The position numbers were made by a program, and so were the translations under genes. From a virus (Duplodnaviria; Heunggongvirae; Uroviricota; Caudoviricetes): a stretch of DNA of 23,689 nt. Below the pieces are notes generated by a model. It saw nothing but the letters and a program-made list of their open reading frames with translations, searched no databases and had not been told where the DNA came from. The stretch spans positions 1-23,689 of IMG/VR virus record IMGVR_UViG_2698536618_000024; one strand, given 5' to 3'. Below are positions 2,431-11,551 of the stretch, piece after piece. Position 1 is the stretch's first letter; every line of letters begins with the position of its first letter.

Positions 2431-2634
2431 ATGTACCGTATGGACAAAATCAGAGAATGGTTCAGTTATAGTTTCGGAGGACTGACTGCGATGGGTGGCA
2501 TTCTCTCCCTGAATGACTGGGCTGTCATCATTGGTATTCTTTGTACTGTCGGCACATTTGGCATCAACTGGTACTACAAGCGCAAAGAGCGCGAGGACAG
2601 ATTGAATGGCAATGTCACCGGTACTACGAAATAG
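2431..2634 (+). CDS. Holin, pinholin-like, with dual start motif (Met1/Met4)
   Basis: 67 aa with two hydrophobic segments and charged C-terminus; N-terminus MYRMDKI resembles the recalled phage 21 S dual start (MKSMDKI); directly precedes a SAR endolysin. Confidence 0.7.
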
Positions 2635-3109
2635 CGTAATAGCGGCGATAAGTGGCGGGGCTATTGCTATAGCATCTGTGTTAATCACTGGACCAAGTGG
2701 TAACGATGGCCTGGAAGGTGTCAGCTACATACCATACAAAGATATTGTTGGTGTATGGACTGTATGCCACGGACACACCGGAAAAGACATCATGCTCGGT
2801 AAAACGTATACCGAAGCAGAATGCAAAGCCCTCCTGAATAAAGACATTGCCACGGTCGCCAGACAAATTAACCCGTACATCAAAGTCGATATACCGGAAA
2901 CAACGCGCGGCGCTCTTTACTCGTTCGTTTACAACGTGGGTGCTGGAAATTTCAGAACATCGACGCTTCTTCGCAAAATAAACCAGGGCGATATCAAAGG
3001 CGCATGTGATCAGCTACGTCGCTGGACATATGCTGGCGGTAAGCAATGGAAAGGTCTCATGACTCGTCGTGAGATTGAGCGTGAAATCTGTTTGTGGGGT
3101 CAGCAATGA
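2606..3109 (+). CDS. SAR endolysin (T4-lysozyme-like GH24 muramidase with N-terminal signal-anchor-release domain)
   Basis: N-terminal Gly/Ala-rich weakly hydrophobic segment ([22 protein letters not shown]) followed by E-x8-D-x5-T catalytic spacing ([17 protein letters not shown]); near-identical to my recollection of phage 21 R. Confidence 0.9.
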
Positions 3110-3573
3110 ACAGAGTAACCGCGATTATCTCCGCTCTGGTTATCTGCATCGTCGTCTGCCTGTCATGGGGTGTTAATCATTACCGTGATAACGCCATCGC
3201 CTACAAAGAACAGCGCGACAAAAATGCCAGAGAACTGAAGCTGGCGAACGCGGCAATTACTGAGATGCAGATGCGTCAGCGTGATGTTGCTGCGCTCGAT
3301 GCAAAATACACGAAGGAGTTAGCTGATGCGAAAGCTGAAAATGATGCTCTTCGGCGCAAGCTTGATAATGGTGGCAGGGTGCTCGTCAAAGGAAAATGCC
3401 CTGTGCCATCCTCAGACGAAACCTCCAGCGCCTCCGGCATGGGCAATGATGCCACCGTCGAACTCTCTCCAGTTGCTGGACGAAACGTTCTCGGTATCCG
3501 GGACGGAATTATCCGCGACCAAACAGCACTAAGAACGCTTCAGGAATACATCAGGACGCAATGCCTTCGATGA
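3106..3573 (+). CDS. Rz: Rz i-spanin
   Basis: N-terminal TM segment ([18 protein letters not shown]), coiled-coil-like body, strong resemblance to recalled lambda Rz; ATG 3106 overlaps endolysin stop (ATGA). Confidence 0.85.
3326..3532 (+). CDS. Rz1: Rz1 o-spanin lipoprotein, embedded in the +1 frame of Rz
   Basis: Lipobox LIMVAGC then Pro-rich PPAPPAW; resembles recalled lambda Rz1; fully nested within Rz. Confidence 0.8.
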
Positions 3574-3747
3574 TAGCGATAATTTTACTCATCATCCTTC
3601 ACATCTGGCTCTGTAGGCAGGGTGGTGAACACTTCTGGAGTGAATCCGGATTAAATATCTCATTGCTGATGCTTGATATTGAGCATCTGGCGCGCGGTAA
3701 GGGGCTGTGTTGAGATAAGAGCCAGTCATTACAAACACCAGGATTTA

Positions 3748-3770
3748 GCCTCGCATTCGCGGGGCTTTTT
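3748..3770 (+). terminator. Intrinsic terminator-like hairpin in the post-lysis spacer
   Basis: GCCTCGC (3748-3754) pairs with GCGGGGC (3759-3765) with one G-U, loop ATTC, then TTTTT 3766-3770. Confidence 0.4.
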
Positions 3771-4043
3771 ACATCTGCAGTAAACCGCGCATCGCAGCGC
3801 GTAACAATCCCGAGTCTTTCAGAAAGCTGAGCCTGAGAACTGCCGTATATGGTGGCGACCATCTCGGGGCGGCTTTTCTGTGCGAAACCGGAATTTATTC
3901 TTGGCAACCAGTTACGGCAGTACCACGAAACAACCCAAGCCAGTAAGTGGGGAAATAACACTGGCAGCCACTGAAAGATGAACCTCCTGCCTTATGGCAA
4001 AAAAGATTCTTTGTGGTGGCGGACTGATGGAAAGACATCGGTT

Positions 4044-4078
4044 ATTGCAGAGACCATTCAATGAGTGGTCTCTGCAAT
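4044..4078. repeat. 13-bp perfect inverted repeat with 9-bp spacer
   Basis: ATTGCAGAGACCA (4044-4056) / TGGTCTCTGCAAT (4066-4078), read directly; ~65 bp upstream of the ORF starting at 4142. Confidence 0.7.
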
Positions 4079-4141
4079 GGCTTATACCCTGCACGGGATA
4101 ACTTAACTGATATCCCTTTTAACGGATAAGCGGAGCCAACA

Positions 4142-4384
4142 ATGGCAGAGATTATTCCCATGACTGAAGAACAGAAATTCCAGTTAGAGATTTACAAGCT
4201 GGTCATGAACCAGAACGCAGCCGCAGAGGAAGCATTTCAGTTCATTGGCACTGACGAACTGAAGCTTGAGCTATTCAAAATTCACTTCCAGTCAGGTGGT
4301 GCTAATTCGGATATCACGATCCGCACATTCGAAGCGGTGCGTAAATCGAAGGAAGCGTTAGACCTGTTTACTACCGGAGCATGA
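4142..4384 (+). CDS. Hypothetical small acidic protein (80 aa) upstream of terminase
   Basis: Clean ORF with GGAG-type RBS context, protein-like helical composition; same position and size as the small orf80 that I recall preceding gene 3 in P22; no function recognised. Confidence 0.55.
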   Translation: MAEIIPMTEEQKFQLEIYKLVMNQNAAAEEAFQFIGTDELKLELFKIHFQSGGANSDITIRTFEAVRKSKEALDLFTTGA

Positions 4385-4385
4385 T

Positions 4386-4565
4386 GTGAGCCGCGTAATC
4401 AATTTGGGTAAGGAGAAGAAATTCCCAATTACTCAAGAGCTATACGAGCGGCTGGAAAGCGTCATCCATGATTACGATGGTGAAATCAGTTTATGCGAGG
4501 CGATTGGCACACTTGAATTGCTGAAGCAGTCATTGATTGAAGGCGCGAAAGAGTCCTCAGCCTGA
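4386..4565 (+). CDS. Hypothetical small protein (59 aa, GTG start), translationally coupled to the upstream ORF
   Basis: Not in the supplied ORF track (below 60 aa). GGAG sits 6 nt upstream of GTG 4386; stop of the upstream ORF (4382-4384) is 1 nt before the start; translation VSRVINLGKEKKFPITQELYERLESVIHDYDGEISLCEAIGTLELLKQSLIEGAKESSA is protein-like. Confidence 0.35.
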   Translation: MSRVINLGKEKKFPITQELYERLESVIHDYDGEISLCEAIGTLELLKQSLIEGAKESSA

Positions 4566-4582
4566 AATGACAATTAAGTGAG

Positions 4583-5011
4583 ATGAATATGGCGACTGAA
4601 CCAAAAGCTGGTCGCCCCTCTGATTATATGCCGGAGGTGGCTGACGATATCTGCTCGTTGCTTTCTTCTGGCGAAAGTCTGCTGAAAGTATGTAAGCGTC
4701 CTGGTATGCCGGATAAGTCCACTGTTTTCCGCTGGTTGGCAAAGCATGAGGATTTTCGCGACAAGTACGCGAAGGCAACTGAGGCACGAGCTGATTCTAT
4801 TTTCGAAGAGATATTCGAAATTGCTGACAATGCGATTCCAGATGCTGCTGAGGTGGCAAAGGCAAGACTTCGCGTTGATACCCGCAAATGGGCGCTGGCC
4901 CGAATGAATCCCCGTAAGTATGGCGACAAGGTAACTAACGAGCTTGTCGGCAAAGACGGCGGCGCAATCCAGATTGAAACATCACCGATGAGCACTCTAT
5001 TCGGAAAATGA
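4583..5011 (+). CDS. Terminase small subunit
   Basis: 142 aa ORF immediately upstream of and overlapping (ATGA) the large terminase; N-terminal region looks HTH-like; family assignment by position and size only. Confidence 0.75.
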   Translation: MNMATEPKAGRPSDYMPEVADDICSLLSSGESLLKVCKRPGMPDKSTVFRWLAKHEDFRDKYAKATEARADSIFEEIFEIADNAIPDAAEVAKARLRVDTRKWALARMNPRKYGDKVTNELVGKDGGAIQIETSPMSTLFGK

Positions 5012-6423
5012 CCTCGATTAATCCTATCTTTGAACCGTTCATTGAGGCGCATCGCTACAAAGTCGCCAAAGGCGGTCGAGGTAGCGGTAAATCATGGGCA
5101 ATTGCGAGACTGCTTGTTGAGGCGGCACGTCGGCAGCCTGTGCGTATTCTTTGCGCTCGTGAACTGCAAAACAGTATCAGCGATTCGGTAATCCGGTTGC
5201 TTGAAGATACCATCGAGCGTGAAGGGTATTCGGCTGAGTTTGAAATTCAGCGTTCTATGATTCGTCATCTCGGAACGAATGCTGAGTTCATGTTCTACGG
5301 CATCAAAAACAACCCGACGAAGATTAAATCGCTAGAAGGTATTGATATCTGCTGGGTGGAGGAAGCGGAAGCGGTAACGAAGGAATCATGGGATATCCTG
5401 ATACCAACCATCCGCAAGCCGTTTTCCGAAATATGGGTGAGCTTTAACCCTAAGAACATCCTCGACGATACCTATCAGCGATTCGTTGTAAATCCTCCCG
5501 ATGATATTTGCCTGCTGACGGTGAACTACACTGACAACCCGCATTTTCCTGAAGTTCTCCGTCTGGAGATGGAAGAGTGTAAACGCAGAAATCCGACACT
5601 GTATCGTCACATCTGGCTTGGTGAGCCAGTAAGCGCAAGTGATATGGCAATCATCAAACGTGAATGGCTTGAAGCCGCAACCGATGCGCACAAGAAACTC
5701 GGATGGAAAGCGAAAGGTGCTGTTGTCTCTGCGCATGACCCATCAGATACAGGGCCAGATGCTAAAGGTTATGCATCGCGTCACGGTTCGGTAGTTAAGC
5801 GCATTGCCGAAGGTCTGCTGATGGACATCAACGAGGGTGCTGACTGGGCTACTTCGCTGGCGATTGAAGACGGCTCTGACCACTACCTGTGGGATGGTGA
5901 TGGTGTTGGTGCCGGGCTACGCAGACAGACAACGGAAGCGTTCTCCGGCAAGAAAATCACCGCCACGATGTTCAAGGGCAGCGAATCGCCATTCGATGAA
6001 GATGCGCCATATCAGGCCGGAGCATGGGCTGATGAAGTCGTACAGGGCGACAATGTTCGCACTATTGGCGATGTATTCCGCAATAAGCGAGCGCAATTCT
6101 ATTACGCGCTGGCTGACAGGCTGTATCTGACATATCGGGCGGTTGTCCACGGTGAGTATGCAGACCCCGACGACATGCTGAGCTTCGACAAAGAAGCGAT
6201 AGGCGAGAAGATGCTGGAGAAGCTGTTTGCAGAACTGACGCAGATTCAGCGCAAATTCAATAACAACGGGAAGCTGGAGCTTATGACTAAGGTCGAAATG
6301 AAGCAGAAGCTCGGTATTCCATCTCCTAACCTGGCTGATGCGCTGATGATGTGTATGCATTGCCCGGAGTCGGCTGCGCAACCCGACTATTCCAGTTACT
6401 CAATTCCTTGTGGTGTAGGTTGA
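5008..6423 (+). CDS. Terminase large subunit (ATPase/nuclease)
   Basis: Walker A-like KGGRGSGKS near N-terminus, 471 aa, directly upstream of portal. Confidence 0.9.
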   Translation: MTSINPIFEPFIEAHRYKVAKGGRGSGKSWAIARLLVEAARRQPVRILCARELQNSISDSVIRLLEDTIEREGYSAEFEIQRSMIRHLGTNAEFMFYGIKNNPTKIKSLEGIDICWVEEAEAVTKESWDILIPTIRKPFSEIWVSFNPKNILDDTYQRFVVNPPDDICLLTVNYTDNPHFPEVLRLEMEECKRRNPTLYRHIWLGEPVSASDMAIIKREWLEAATDAHKKLGWKAKGAVVSAHDPSDTGPDAKGYASRHGSVVKRIAEGLLMDINEGADWATSLAIEDGSDHYLWDGDGVGAGLRRQTTEAFSGKKITATMFKGSESPFDEDAPYQAGAWADEVVQGDNVRTIGDVFRNKRAQFYYALADRLYLTYRAVVHGEYADPDDMLSFDKEAIGEKMLEKLFAELTQIQRKFNNNGKLELMTKVEMKQKLGIPSPNLADALMMCMHCPESAAQPDYSSYSIPCGVG

Positions 6424-6424
6424 T

Positions 6425-8623
6425 ATGGCAGAAAAAAAGATGACTGACTGGCATCGCAAGGTGCTGTGCAACTTTGATAATGCCTGGTCAGCAACGCAGG
6501 ATATGCGTAAGCAGATTATTGAGGCTCAACGTTTCGTCCGGGTGTCCGGCGCACAGTGGGAAGGCAGCACAAACGCTGGTTACTCATTTGATGAAGGCAG
6601 GTTTGAGCATTACCCGCGCTTTGAACTGAATAAGATTGCCCGTGAATGTGATCGCATCATTGGCGAGTATCGACAGAATCGCATCAGCGTTAAATTCAGG
6701 CCGAAGGATGACAAGGCATCGGAAGCGTTAGCCGAAAAGATGAACGGCAAATTCCGCGCTGATTATCAGGAAACATCCGGTGGCGAAGCGTGTGATAACG
6801 CATTTGATGATGCTGTAACGGGCGGATTCGGTTGTTTCCGCATGTGTGCTGATTACGAAGATGAAATGGATCCGAGTAACGAGCAGCGACGCATCAGCCT
6901 TCTTCCTGTTTACGACCCGGCGACATGCGTCTTCTTCGATCAGGACAGCAAGCAATATGACCGCTCTGATGCCATGTGGGCTATGGAAATGTTCTCCATG
7001 ACGCCTAAAGCGTTCGAGGCTGAATACCCTGATTCCACCGTGGCAAGCATTTCTCGTGATGACACTGGTACTCAGTATGACTGGTCAACGCCTGACGCCA
7101 TCTATGTTGGACGCTACTACGAAGTCCGCATAGAGAAGGTGAAGCTCACAGCATGGCGTAACCCTGTCAGCGGAGAAACGGCAATCTATGACGAAGAGCA
7201 AATCAAAGATATTGTCGACGAGCTGACCGATGGTGCATTCGAACTGATTGGCGAGCGAACGGTGAAGAAACGCCGAGTTTATTGCGGTCTTCTGTCTGGC
7301 GCTGAATGGCTGGAAGAACCGAAGCGTATTCCGGGCGAACATATTCCTCTCATCCCGGTATATGGGCGTCGTTCATTTGTTGATAATCAGGAGCGAATCG
7401 AAGGCCACGCAGCAAAAGCGATGGATGCACAGCGTCTTGAGAACCTGATGGTTTCCATGATTGCAGATAACGCTACTCAGGCTGGCGGCGATGGCATTCC
7501 TATCGTGGATGTTGATTTCATTCCCGGTCCATTAATGAATCACTGGGCAGAGAGGAATAAGAAAAGACCTGCAGTTCTTCCCATGACCAGCAAGAAGGAC
7601 AAAAACGGAACGGTCATTTCAGAGGCTCAGGTTGCTGGCTGGACACCTCCGACACAAATGCCTCCTGCTCTTGCTGGGCTATTGCAGTACACCGGAACGG
7701 CTATTCAGCAAATTACAGGTGCGTCGCAGCTTGAGAACATGCCGAGCAACGTCGCTACCGATACCGTTGATAGCATCTTTAACCGGATGGACACGCAGTC
7801 CTATATCTACATGGACAACATGGCTAAATCCATGCGCCGTGCTGGCGTCGTGTGGCTTTCTATGGCTCGTGAAGTCTATGGCAGCGATACGCCAATGCGC
7901 ATCGTTAATGAGGATGGCAGCGATGACGTGGCGCTGATGACTGGTGAAGTGGTTGACCGTCAGACAGGGAAGGTTATCGCGCTTAACGACCTTTCGCAGG
8001 GTAACTATGAAGTGACTGTCGATGTCGGTCAGTCGTTCGCTACTCGCCGTGATGCAACGGTTAAGTCGTTGCTTTCCATGCTGGCACTTATCCCGCCAGG
8101 AACGTCGAAGCATGACCTTGTATCGTCGATGATTCTCGACAATATGGACGGCGAAGGGATGGGCGACCTTAAAGAATACAACCGCAATCAGTTGCTTCTG
8201 TCTGGCGTTATTAAGCCGAGAACACCAGAAGAACAGCAGATGGTTGAGCAGGCGAAACAACAACAGGCCAGTCAGCCGGATCCGGCTATGGTTGCTGCGC
8301 AAGGTCAGCTTCTTGCTGGTCAGGCTGAATTGCAGAAAGCGCAGAACGAACAGGCAGCCATTCAGGTTAAAGCATTCCAGGCACAGACTGATGCTCAGGT
8401 TGCAGCGGCAAATGTTGTGAAAATCCTCGCATCTGCCGATAGCCAGCAGAAATCTGATATCCGCGAGGCTCTGAAACTGCTCGGACAGTTCCAGCAACAG
8501 CAAGGAGACAATGCCCGTGCTGATGCGGAGCTTGTCCTGAAAAGTCAGGCACAGGGCCATGCGCAGCGCATGGACATCAGCAGCATCCTGCAAAAATCAA
8601 CTCAGCAACAACCACAGCAGTAA
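6425..8623 (+). CDS. Portal protein, P22 gp1-like
   Basis: 732 aa; segments DYEDEMDPSNEQRRISLLPVYD, KRRRVY, GEHIPLIPVYG, PEEQQMVEQAKQQQASQPDPAMVAAQGQLLAGQAELQKAQN and RMDISSILQ match recalled P22 portal including the Gln/Ala-rich C-terminal segment. Confidence 0.95.
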   Translation: MAEKKMTDWHRKVLCNFDNAWSATQDMRKQIIEAQRFVRVSGAQWEGSTNAGYSFDEGRFEHYPRFELNKIARECDRIIGEYRQNRISVKFRPKDDKASEALAEKMNGKFRADYQETSGGEACDNAFDDAVTGGFGCFRMCADYEDEMDPSNEQRRISLLPVYDPATCVFFDQDSKQYDRSDAMWAMEMFSMTPKAFEAEYPDSTVASISRDDTGTQYDWSTPDAIYVGRYYEVRIEKVKLTAWRNPVSGETAIYDEEQIKDIVDELTDGAFELIGERTVKKRRVYCGLLSGAEWLEEPKRIPGEHIPLIPVYGRRSFVDNQERIEGHAAKAMDAQRLENLMVSMIADNATQAGGDGIPIVDVDFIPGPLMNHWAERNKKRPAVLPMTSKKDKNGTVISEAQVAGWTPPTQMPPALAGLLQYTGTAIQQITGASQLENMPSNVATDTVDSIFNRMDTQSYIYMDNMAKSMRRAGVVWLSMAREVYGSDTPMRIVNEDGSDDVALMTGEVVDRQTGKVIALNDLSQGNYEVTVDVGQSFATRRDATVKSLLSMLALIPPGTSKHDLVSSMILDNMDGEGMGDLKEYNRNQLLLSGVIKPRTPEEQQMVEQAKQQQASQPDPAMVAAQGQLLAGQAELQKAQNEQAAIQVKAFQAQTDAQVAAANVVKILASADSQQKSDIREALKLLGQFQQQQGDNARADAELVLKSQAQGHAQRMDISSILQKSTQQQPQQ

Positions 8624-8713: not shown

Positions 8714-9607
8714 ATGGACCAGATGGCAGAAAACACACCAGAAGTTGAAATCGAAACCGACGCGTCAGAGCAGATTCCTGATGATGTCGAACTGGCTGAA
8801 GAAGTCGAAACAGAAGATGGCAGTGAGTCCTCCGGCAATAATGCAGAGGAAGCTACTGAAACTGATGACGACGAATCAGAACAGGAATTCTACTTTGGTG
8901 ACGAAAAGCTGGATTCGCCAACCAGCGAAGATGGCGCAGAGCATGGACTGGTAAAACACCTGCGCAAGACGATTAAAGAGAAAGACCGTGAGCTGAAAGA
9001 GCTGATGCGTCAGTCTCAGAAACCCGTCGAGCAGCAGCCGGTAATCACTCAACCACCGCGAATGCCAAAACTGGATGATGAGGACATCGGTTTCGATGAA
9101 GAAATCTACCAGCAACGCATGGCTAAGTGGGCAGAGGATAACGGCAAGTACCAGCAACAGGAGATGGCTCGCAAGCAGAAGGAGCAGGAGCTTCAGGCTG
9201 CCTATCAAGAGCGATTATCCAAATATCAGCAACGTGTTAAGGCTCTCAAAGTTCCTGGCTATCAGGAAGCTGAGCAAGCCGTACTCGAGGAAATCCCCAT
9301 CGAGACACAAAACGCGATCCTGTTTGAGTCAGAGAAGCCGGAAATCGTTGTTCTGGCACTCGGTCGCAACGCTGAACTGCGCAAGCAACTGGCAGAAGCT
9401 ACCAACCCCGTAGCAATTGGTCGTCTGCTGGAACGTATCGAATCGAAGGCCAGAATCATGCCAAAAGCAAAAACCACGGCAGCCACAACCCCGACAGTTA
9501 AGGGGAGCAACGGCGCAGTAATCAACAACCTCGGCAAATTGAAAGCCAAGGCGCTGGAAACTGGTGACTGGACGCCGTATTTCGCCGCTAAAAAGGCAAA
9601 AAAATAA
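8714..9607 (+). CDS. Scaffolding protein
   Basis: 297 aa, highly acidic N-terminus, charged helical body, basic C-terminus; between portal and coat as in P22 (gp8). Confidence 0.8.
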   Translation: MDQMAENTPEVEIETDASEQIPDDVELAEEVETEDGSESSGNNAEEATETDDDESEQEFYFGDEKLDSPTSEDGAEHGLVKHLRKTIKEKDRELKELMRQSQKPVEQQPVITQPPRMPKLDDEDIGFDEEIYQQRMAKWAEDNGKYQQQEMARKQKEQELQAAYQERLSKYQQRVKALKVPGYQEAEQAVLEEIPIETQNAILFESEKPEIVVLALGRNAELRKQLAEATNPVAIGRLLERIESKARIMPKAKTTAATTPTVKGSNGAVINNLGKLKAKALETGDWTPYFAAKKAKK

Positions 9608-10920: not shown

Positions 10921-11109
10921 ATGGCACGAACAATGCTCTATAAGCCTGGCAACATGATCACCTGTGGTCAGTTTGCTGTCGATTACATCATTGTTGATGA
11001 CGAAGAAGTTAAATCTCACCTGAAAAAAGGTTGGGTAAAAACTCCTGAAGAAACCGCAACGAAGCAAAAAGTGGCTAAGGCGGAAGAAGATGGCGAAAAC
11101 GAAGGGTGA
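10921..11109 (+). CDS. Hypothetical small protein (62 aa) between coat and gp4
   Basis: ATG 10921 preceded by GGGAGAAG; the ORF-track start at 10882 lies inside the terminator hairpin and is rejected; corresponds positionally to the small gene I recall between coat and gp4 homologues in Sf6-like phages. Confidence 0.45.
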   Translation: MARTMLYKPGNMITCGQFAVDYIIVDDEEVKSHLKKGWVKTPEETATKQKVAKAEEDGENEG

Positions 11110-11551
11110 TCTCGTTCTAAAGGCTTTACGAAAAGCCGGGCTGTATTCCAATGCCACGTTGACAGATGCTGACCCTCAGGCAATTGAAGATGCCATTAAT
11201 GACCTCGAAGACATGATGGCAGCATGGCAGGCGAAAGGTATCGAGCTTGGGTATCAGTTTGCTGATACAGAAAACGGCATCATGCCGTTACCTGACGATG
11301 ATTCAGGTATCCCTGCATGGGCAAATGATGGCGTCGCTTTGAAACTCGCTGTGCAAGTGTGCATGGATAACGTCATTCAGCCGTCAGACGCTCTCCTTAC
11401 CGCTGCTGACAGTGCATATCAAACAATCTGTATCGCTTTAACCAAAATACCACCACTTGAGCGGCGAAATGATATGCCTCGCGGTAGTGGTAACAAAAGC
11501 GCGTTTACGTGGAATCGGTTTTACATCGAGAAAGATGATCCGAGTACGTGA
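11090..11551 (+). CDS. Tail accessory / head-completion protein, P22 gp4-like
   Basis: N-terminus KTKGDLVLKALRKAGLYSNATLTDADPQAIEDAINDLEDMMAAWQ resembles recalled P22 gp4; position after coat. Confidence 0.85.
   Translation: MAKTKGDLVLKALRKAGLYSNATLTDADPQAIEDAINDLEDMMAAWQAKGIELGYQFADTENGIMPLPDDDSGIPAWANDGVALKLAVQVCMDNVIQPSDALLTAADSAYQTICIALTKIPPLERRNDMPRGSGNKSAFTWNRFYIEKDDPST

Follow-up and report, generated by a model that had tools for sequence, protein, structure and literature searches.

The window (the whole stretch of DNA that was analyzed, 23,689 nt) represents the late region in a prophage of the P22-like, Lederbergvirus type. The two small genes described here, hereafter ORF1 and ORF2, lie between the lysis genes and the gene for the small terminase subunit (terS), in the following order.

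2606-3573: lysis genes, with Rz at 3094-3573
3747-3766, plus strand: terminator-like hairpin, 3' of the lysis genes and 5' of ORF1
3884-4100, no strand assigned: non-coding conserved boundary segment 5' of ORF1; accessory genes ("morons") are inserted at its right edge in relatives
4132-4135, plus strand: GGAG, Shine-Dalgarno-like, serving ORF1 and located 6 nt 5' of its ATG (read from the sequence)
4142-4384, plus strand: ORF1, 80 aa, Pfam DUF2560; ATG at 4142, TGA at 4382-4384
4376-4379, plus strand: GGAG, Shine-Dalgarno-like, serving ORF2; within the final codons of ORF1 and 6 nt 5' of the GTG
4382-4388, plus strand: stop-start junction TGA-T-GTG, a putative termination-reinitiation site, whose spacer is the lone T at 4385
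4386-4565, plus strand: ORF2, 59 aa, PHROG 3546; GTG at 4386, TGA at 4563-4565
4589-5011 (start at 4583 or 4589), plus strand: terS, Sf6-type small terminase (Pfam Sf6_terminase, E = 7.8e-45)
5008-6423: large terminase gene
6425-8623: portal gene

An earlier note on this DNA had described an 80-aa frame and a GTG-started 59-aa frame separated by 1 nt, each with a GGAG-type ribosome-binding site, and this arrangement was confirmed in the sequence. As that note also stated, ORF2 is missing from the supplied list of open reading frames on account of its size; the default minimum of the ORF lister is 60 aa. The gap between the ORF2 stop codon and the terS start at 4589 is 23 nt.

Identity and conservation of the two genes

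ORF1 matched the Pfam family DUF2560 (PF10834) with an E-value of 2.6e-42 and 143.3 bits (cut-off, 25), residues 5-76 aligning with positions 1-72 of the 72-position profile, and it also matched phrog_571. The match of ORF2 to PHROG 3546 took in all 59 residues of the protein and all 59 profile positions (E = 5.7e-43). Both are already annotated in well-known phages: ORF1 is Orf80 of P22, HkbM of HK620, and gp67 of Sf6, and ORF2 is Orf59c of P22, HkbN of HK620, and gp68 of Sf6. The suggestion in the earlier note that the first frame corresponds to P22 orf80 was thus correct, as judged from 96% identity and the P22 annotation. The identity of ORF1 was 97.5% with the HK620 and Sf6 proteins and 100% with those of PS34, Gally, and SEN22, and that of ORF2 ranged from 88 to 100% across annotated phages (tblastn). 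RefSeq annotates both genes in Escherichia coli; in 1009 of 5426 complete genomes, a partial match to the ORF1-ORF2 block was found, and 142 genomes contained at least 80% of the block. In some records, including those of BTP1 and PS34 and one record of P22, ORF2 is left unannotated, and the practical message for annotators is that the 59-aa GTG-start gene is real.

ORF1 and ORF2 are genuine conserved phage genes. In 59 unique sequences of the 424-bp ORF1-ORF2 block from IMG/VR relatives, pN/pS in the annotated frames was 0.146 for ORF1 and 0.144 for ORF2, compared with 0.7-3.4 in the other frames. Variable sites were concentrated at the third codon position (25, 13, and 49 sites at positions 1, 2, and 3 of ORF1; 14, 10, and 29 sites at those of ORF2). 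ORF2 is therefore kept as a reading frame in relatives, a point that the earlier note had proposed to check. Homologues that begin with ATG align with ORF2 from residue 1, in support of the GTG start, and the protein contains no internal methionine. The earlier note had also allowed for a match of ORF1 to a characterized protein; the match obtained, DUF2560, is to an uncharacterized family. The GC contents of the two ORFs, 0.457 and 0.467, are ordinary for the window (0.474). No Rfam family matched within 3400-4800, and neither ORF1 nor ORF2 gave a significant NCBIfam match.

A literature search for orf59c, hkbM, hkbN, PF10834, and the accession numbers returned nothing relevant, and DUF2560 appeared as incidental mentions in two papers. 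Two reports bear on orf80 of P22: a phage in which orf25, orf80, and pid were replaced is viable (bioRxiv 10.1101/2023.08.15.553423), and P22 lacking orf25 through orf80 forms plaques and lysogenizes (PMC11016777). Under laboratory conditions, P22 needs its copy of ORF1 neither to grow lytically nor to lysogenize. ORF1 and ORF2 are both treated here as accessory genes, with the deletion data covering the homologue of ORF1 only.

Transcription, translation, and the upstream interval

The earlier note had placed the two genes at the head of a terminase operon, and this placement was not supported. A scan of 3400-4800 revealed no site resembling a sigma-70 promoter and no terminator 3' of ORF2. 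In the HK620 annotation, the late promoter, the qut site, and the late terminator are all located upstream of the lysis genes. Because of this late-operon layout and the lack of a promoter-like site in 3400-4800, we infer that ORF1 and ORF2 are internal genes of a single Q-antiterminated late transcript, by homology with P22 and HK620, rather than the first genes of a separate terminase operon. In epsilon34, the annotation gives the counterpart of the 3747-3766 hairpin as a Rho-independent terminator, and Q antitermination would, by analogy with P22 and lambda biology, read through it. In the proposed course of expression, a late transcript originating upstream of the lysis genes would be antiterminated by Q and would extend into ORF1 and ORF2. 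Ribosomes finishing ORF1 would then most probably reinitiate at the weak GTG of ORF2, 1 nt past the stop codon, a step suggested by the 1-nt spacing and by the position of the GGAG inside ORF1.

The junction TGA-T-GTG was found in 68 related loci, among them P22, Sf6, and HK620; most relatives keep the GGAG of the ORF2 start, and a few have GGAA instead. The RNA around the junction showed no unusual structure (z = +0.93), and a hairpin that would sequester the ORF2 start was rejected, the structure being not significant. The anatomy of the junction fits the translational coupling claimed in the earlier note, and the two genes are probably coupled in function as well. It does not appear to be obligatory for ORF2, however: in 15 of 80 close relatives, a 95-aa gene separates ORF1 from ORF2, and ORF2 then begins with an ATG of its own (MTSVVDLG...).

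The interval upstream of ORF1 is itself conserved in part. The 3884-4100 segment showed 91-98% nucleotide identity with P22, HK97, ST64T, Sf6, epsilon34, and HK620, and it contains a terminator-like hairpin on the minus strand (4004 to 3983). A 35-aa ORF at 3994-4101, fused to DUF2560 in Orf-118 of ST64T, was considered and rejected because it had no coding signature, and a 120-aa minus-strand ORF at 3599-3961 had no match in Pfam, PHROG, or NCBIfam. Since mosaic phages share the upstream segment of ~200 bp at the nucleotide level, recombination at module boundaries could account for part of the fixed position of DUF2560 described below.

In the 80 close relatives, the order was Rz, a variable slot, ORF1, the optional 95-aa ORF, ORF2, and TerS. 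The variable slot was either empty or occupied by Rha, KilA-N, HkbL, a GIY-YIG gene, a gene of the Sf6 gp66 family, or a Tad2-like gene. The small terminase gene 3' of ORF2 varied as well: when these relatives and the window were counted together, 35 were of the Sf6 type, 39 of the P22 gp3 type, and 4 of the Terminase_2 family. The lysis-to-terS interval can be regarded as an accessory-gene hot spot, whose occupants are pid, Tad2-like, Sf6 gp66-family, Rha, KilA-N, and GIY-YIG genes and the 95-aa ORF.

Distribution, predicted structures, and possible roles

Full-length DUF2560 occurred in 142 phage records, whereas ORF2 occurred in only 45. In CUS-3, epsilon34, and g341c, nucleotide homology ends exactly at the end of ORF1 and ORF2 is absent; ST64T likewise has no ORF2. 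Divergent DUF2560 members, with 35-44% identity, lie between the lysis genes and terS in ST64T (Orf-118), a prophage-derived Klebsiella phage, and a Proteus phage. Furthermore, in six species-representative prophages (from Symbiopectobacterium, Pantoea, Erwinia, two Pseudescherichia, and an Escherichia sp.) with 34-39% identity, DUF2560 ends 4-12 nt before terS. Pfam scans of four of the terS genes behind it showed that three families are represented: Sf6_terminase, Terminase_2, and GP3_package. The remaining two terS genes are almost the same in sequence as one of these four, a Terminase_2 gene. The window has the same order of lysis cassette, DUF2560, and small terminase gene (Rz at 3094-3573, ORF1 from 4142, and terS from 4589).

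The AF2 model of ORF1 (pLDDT 68.6) consists of four helices at residues 9-22, 26-35, 39-54, and 58-78. The invariant positions of DUF2560 are L15, A27, A28, A31, E43, L44, F45, L73, L75, and F76, a set that, as read from the alignment, is a packing core without catalytic-type residues. Because these positions comprise only Leu, Ala, Phe, and one Glu, ORF1 is unlikely to be an enzyme and is better described as a predicted four-helix protein of ~9 kDa with a binding or structural role. Comparison of ORF1 and ORF2 with the TerS and packaging family profiles of Pfam and PHROG gave no match, and only the next gene matched Sf6_terminase. A possible internal duplication in ORF1 was dropped as marginal, an equal score being reached in 4.6% of shuffles. 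Since the gene is fixed immediately 5' of terS across divergent prophages with three unrelated TerS families, we tentatively suggest, as a reading that falls some way short of probable, that ORF1 is a non-enzymatic binding protein whose role is tied to the packaging module. It would modulate or protect the initiation of packaging, or affect the expression of the packaging genes.

ORF2 behaves differently in its distribution. A profile search collected 210 clusters of the family at 50% identity (E ≤ 0.001), nearly all of 50-65 aa, and each of 60 diverse relatives matched phrog_3546. The one giant match to the profile that was inspected, P0158 (2149 aa), arose through a repeated motif, RRTIIFENDGDLSLTQAIPT, and was judged spurious. 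Members of the family were found in the nin region (in a Providencia phage, and between DUF551 and NinB in a lambdoid contig), in an early-left region close to the integrase gene, at the left ends of both a virulent-type Erwinia phage and an 84-kb contig carrying Thy1 and DNA ligase, near an ERF recombinase gene, amid genes of DNA and RNA metabolism, and, once, between TerL and a Mu-F-like gene. No conserved partner gene of ORF2 was found across the family contexts examined, and tblastn with two distant relatives against the phage collection added no further contexts. The family is represented in temperate and virulent phages alike.

In the AF2 model of ORF2 (pLDDT 67.5), strands at residues 2-6 and 12-16 form a hairpin, followed by helices at 17-29 and 36-58. 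The earlier note had called both products helical-looking; ORF1 is predicted to be all-helical, and ORF2 to combine the hairpin with two helices. The family consensus is MxxVxxLxxxKxFPxxxELxxRIxxxIxEYxGxxSLxxxxGVLELxKxxLI, with G41 invariant. Among otherwise collinear relatives, ORF2 is polymorphic for presence and absence, as a moron would be; no promoter or terminator of its own was found, and its base composition is not atypical. ORF2 is predicted to be a protein of ~6.6 kDa with a beta-hairpin plus two-helix fold. Because members of the family turn up in nin, early-left, early-lytic, and packaging regions without a constant partner, we consider it quite possible, if not yet probable, that ORF2 is a self-contained accessory protein that acts on a host or defense target and not on the terminase. 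The argument from accessory regions is one of guilt by association.

A more specific proposal in the same direction, raised in the earlier note, is that ORF1, ORF2, or both are DNA mimics or anti-restriction or anti-defense proteins. Both are small, acidic, and presumably non-essential; the upstream slot of relatives holds a Tad2-like gene (PF11195) and genes of the Sf6 gp66 family, annotated as anti-CRISPR in one record; and the ORF2 family occurs in early accessory regions, where counter-defense genes are common. The acidity is modest, however, as the earlier note had itself observed. The net charges are -5 for ORF1 (pI 4.72; -6.2 per 100 aa) and -4 for ORF2 (pI 4.81; -6.8 per 100 aa), with 16% and 19% acidic residues, respectively. 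This density is like that of structural and other proteins encoded in the window, such as the product of 8714-9607 (-7.4 per 100 aa; pI 4.68) and a 153-aa protein encoded at 11090-11551 (pI 4.36). Classical DNA mimics such as Ocr and ArdA are far more acidic than either protein. Neither protein matched an anti-defense family in Pfam, among annotated PHROGs, or in the PDB, and no likeness to a known mimic was found with Pfam, a PDB sequence search, or Foldseek, the AF2 models being of moderate confidence. In addition, expression from the late operon would be late for a first line of counter-defense. A mimic or anti-defense role is therefore improbable, and nothing speaks for a DNA mimic. The sole pointer toward counter-defense is the neighborhood, namely the genes of the upstream slot in relatives, which in P22 holds the pid moron.

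We consider it still less likely that ORF2 is a dimeric DNA-binding regulator of the ribbon-helix-helix type (Arc/CopG-like), acting for example on packaging or late expression. The predicted order of strand 12-16, helix 17-29, a Gly-containing turn (DGEIS), and helix 36-58 is compatible with such a fold, and the pattern KxFPxxxELxxRIxxxIxEYxGxxS, in our reading of the alignment, resembles its layout. However, ribbon-helix-helix profiles matched none of 31 close relatives and only one of 60 diverse members (E = 0.18), and Foldseek returned no structure of this type. The additional N-terminal strand 2-6 pairs with 12-16 in an intramolecular hairpin in the monomer model. Further points against this reading are the acidic pI of the protein (4.8) and the location of the invariant glycine midway along helix 2. 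Wider searches were also negative: sequence searches of both families against PDB chains, and Foldseek searches of both models against the PDB and of ORF2 also against BFVD, gave no significant match. Pfam searches with the 31 close and 60 diverse ORF2 relatives gave scattered matches with E-values of 0.02 or worse, and the sole PADLOC match was a weak one of ORF2 to JetB (E = 0.011).

The adjacency of the two genes invites a different reading, in which they work as an obligate unit of two components, either a heterodimer or a regulator with its effector, and the 1-nt spacing sets a fixed proportion of the products. The earlier note had implied such a pairing. Adjacency and the junction are kept in the 68 loci mentioned above, and ORF1 lay upstream in all 80 IMG/VR loci that were found through ORF2. 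The distributions are nevertheless independent. About 100 of the 142 phage records with full-length DUF2560 are without ORF2, as are all six of the distant DUF2560 prophages; no DUF2560 match was found beside any distant ORF2 homologue; and the 95-aa gene splits the two in 15 of the 80 relatives. An obligate unit is accordingly very doubtful. As far as their sequences allow us to judge, ORF1 and ORF2 are separately evolving genes and not an obligate or functional pair. Both genes were known; that they are not a functional pair is what is new here. The simplest history is that DUF2560 next to terS was the ancestral arrangement and that ORF2 was later inserted between them in the lineage of P22, Sf6, and HK620.

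It is least probable that the two ORFs encode functionless proteins and are kept as homologous "linker" DNA between the lysis or accessory module and the packaging module: the block does show 94-97% nucleotide identity between variable upstream cassettes and three TerS families, HK97-type phages do retain just the first 28 codons of ORF1, and the adjacent non-coding segment is conserved likewise, but the protein frames are under purifying selection (pN/pS of ~0.145, against at least 0.7 out of frame), the position of DUF2560 is held at 34-44% amino acid identity where DNA homology is gone, and the ORF2 family survives in unrelated genomic contexts.

We return to two real, separately evolving accessory genes of the late operon, with a packaging-linked binding role for ORF1 and a host- or defense-directed role for ORF2. 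Taken as a whole, this explanation is the one we favor, by a modest degree of belief. A bolder form of it, which we put forward as speculative and rather unlikely, is that DUF2560 is a dedicated leader factor of enterobacterial lambdoid packaging modules and that PHROG 3546 is a widespread stand-alone protein of host takeover or counter-defense. If so, DUF2560 would act at a step that terminases share whatever their small subunit, which would explain why its place is kept 5' of three unrelated TerS families; candidate steps would be the fidelity or initiation of packaging, or protection from satellites or from defenses that sense the terminase. Two modest leads, in model phages that are well suited to genetics, follow from the analysis: a small protein with a fixed position before terS and a possible link to packaging, and a mobile family of small accessory proteins with 210 clusters.

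Comparison with known phage loci

The closest known counterpart is the P22 locus. The genes orf80 and orf59c (NC_002371, 41014-41256 and 41258-41437) share with the window their order, the 1-nt gap, and the GTG start of the second gene, and the pair likewise has lysis genes on one side and the small terminase gene on the other. Orf59c is identical to ORF2 across residues 3-59. The terS gene that follows is of the GP3_package type in P22 but of the Sf6 type in the window. Upstream, rha, orf25, and the pid moron are present in P22 but absent from the window. The absence of a reported defect in the P22 orf80 deletion is hard to square with a packaging role of ORF1.

HK620 (hkbM and hkbN) and Sf6 (genes 67 and 68) resemble the window in both genes, in the junction, and in the downstream Sf6-type terminase; within the aligned part, the window terS and HK620 gene 3 show 100% identity. 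ORF2 is 96.6% identical to HkbN and 91% identical to gp68 of Sf6, where the variant is 63 aa long. The upstream genes are a KilA-N gene (hkbK) and hkbL in HK620, and gene 66 (PF13876) in Sf6. The distant DUF2560 members (34-44% identity) share with ORF1 the core length, the invariant hydrophobic positions, and the slot between the lysis genes and terS; they are without ORF2, and terS either follows directly or is separated by one or two unrelated small genes.

Between its lysis and terminase genes, P22 carries the pid moron (Cenens et al. 2013, PMC3573128), which is a further small accessory gene, is non-essential, and shows that accessory genes insert into this interval. It is absent from the window, and ORF1 and ORF2 are unrelated to it.

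HK97 offers a further parallel in position. Its gp74, an HNH endonuclease, sits directly 5' of the terminase genes and starts just past the 28-codon remnant of ORF1. The role of gp74 in cos cleavage is known. It is unrelated to DUF2560, which, in contrast to this nuclease, has no conserved residues of a catalytic type.

Conserved segment upstream of ORF1

A segment of ~200 bp (window 3884-4100) located upstream of ORF1, the 80-aa DUF2560 gene, showed 91-98% nucleotide identity in P22, HK97, ST64T, Sf6, epsilon34, and HK620. In ST64T, the segment was retained at that identity, yet the DUF2560 protein encoded downstream was only 44% identical. A 35-aa ORF (3994-4101) lies within the segment, but codon-position bias was absent among its 17 variants, and the ORF was disrupted in 3 of them. 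The segment is thus conserved at the DNA or RNA level. The right edge of the segment was the place of insertions in relatives:

between window-equivalents 4100 and 4128, pid locus insertion (P22)
window-equivalent 4039/4041, gene 66 insertion (Sf6)

Accessory genes and mosaicism around ORF1 and ORF2

In relatives, genes of two kinds occupied the slot between the lysis gene Rz and ORF1. One encodes a protein with a Tad2-like domain (PF11195, E 1.7e-24), the other a member of the Sf6 gp66/N4 gp49 family (PF13876); they were located as follows:

phage Huey 1696-2196 and 2431-2811, and Sf6 1911-2291, Tad2-like/Sf6 gp66-family genes

In one record, the PF11195 and PF13876 genes were both labelled anti-CRISPR. 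The presence of Tad2-like and Sf6 gp66-family genes in this slot suggests that the Rz-ORF1 interval accumulates counter-defence genes.

ORF1 itself was reduced to its first 28 codons in HK97, HK022, and related siphophages (93-96% identical, phrog_23132):

window 4142-4225, equivalent to HK97 901-984, 28-codon ORF1 remnant

Because only these 28 codons are left and are followed at once by the HNH endonuclease gene gp74, a mosaic joint must sit inside ORF1. In 15 of 80 relatives, ORF1 was separated from ORF2, the 59-aa GTG-start ORF that follows it, by a 95-aa ORF with no match in Pfam, NCBIfam, or PADLOC:

L059 (one such relative) 2204-2491, one of the 15 loci within L054-L094, 95-aa inserted ORF

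Prophages of Pantoea, Erwinia, and Pseudescherichia carry 88-aa ORFs just 5' of DUF2560, one of them at L107 3657-3923, and a PRYxxxxxVxALKI-like motif was common to these and the 95-aa ORF.

The ORF2 profile search also matched giant proteins of 2,000-5,000 aa, including P0158, P0179, and P0227. The one inspected, P0158 (2149 aa), matched through a repeated motif, RRTIIFENDGDLSLTQAIPT; as the match was driven by this repeat, P0158 was judged spurious and rejected as an ORF2 homologue, a verdict that covers P0158 alone.

Hairpins and small ORFs between Rz and ORF1

The following features were located in the Rz-ORF1 interval:

3561-3713, 50-aa hydrophobic ORF overlapping the 3' end of Rz
3747-3766, plus strand, terminator-like hairpin 3' of the 50-aa ORF
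3599-3961, minus strand, 120-aa GTG-start ORF in the interval that holds pid in P22
4004->3983, minus strand, terminator-like hairpin inside the conserved segment

The 120-aa ORF had no match in Pfam, PHROG, or NCBIfam and is probably not a gene. Judged by position and flanking nucleotide homology, the 50-aa ORF is the counterpart of Sf6 gene 65 and epsilon34 gene 67. In epsilon34, the counterpart of the plus-strand hairpin is annotated as a terminator. For the leftward pid transcript of P22, a 3' Rho-independent terminator has been reported (PMC3573128), and the position of the minus-strand hairpin fits that of this terminator, although pid is absent from the window.
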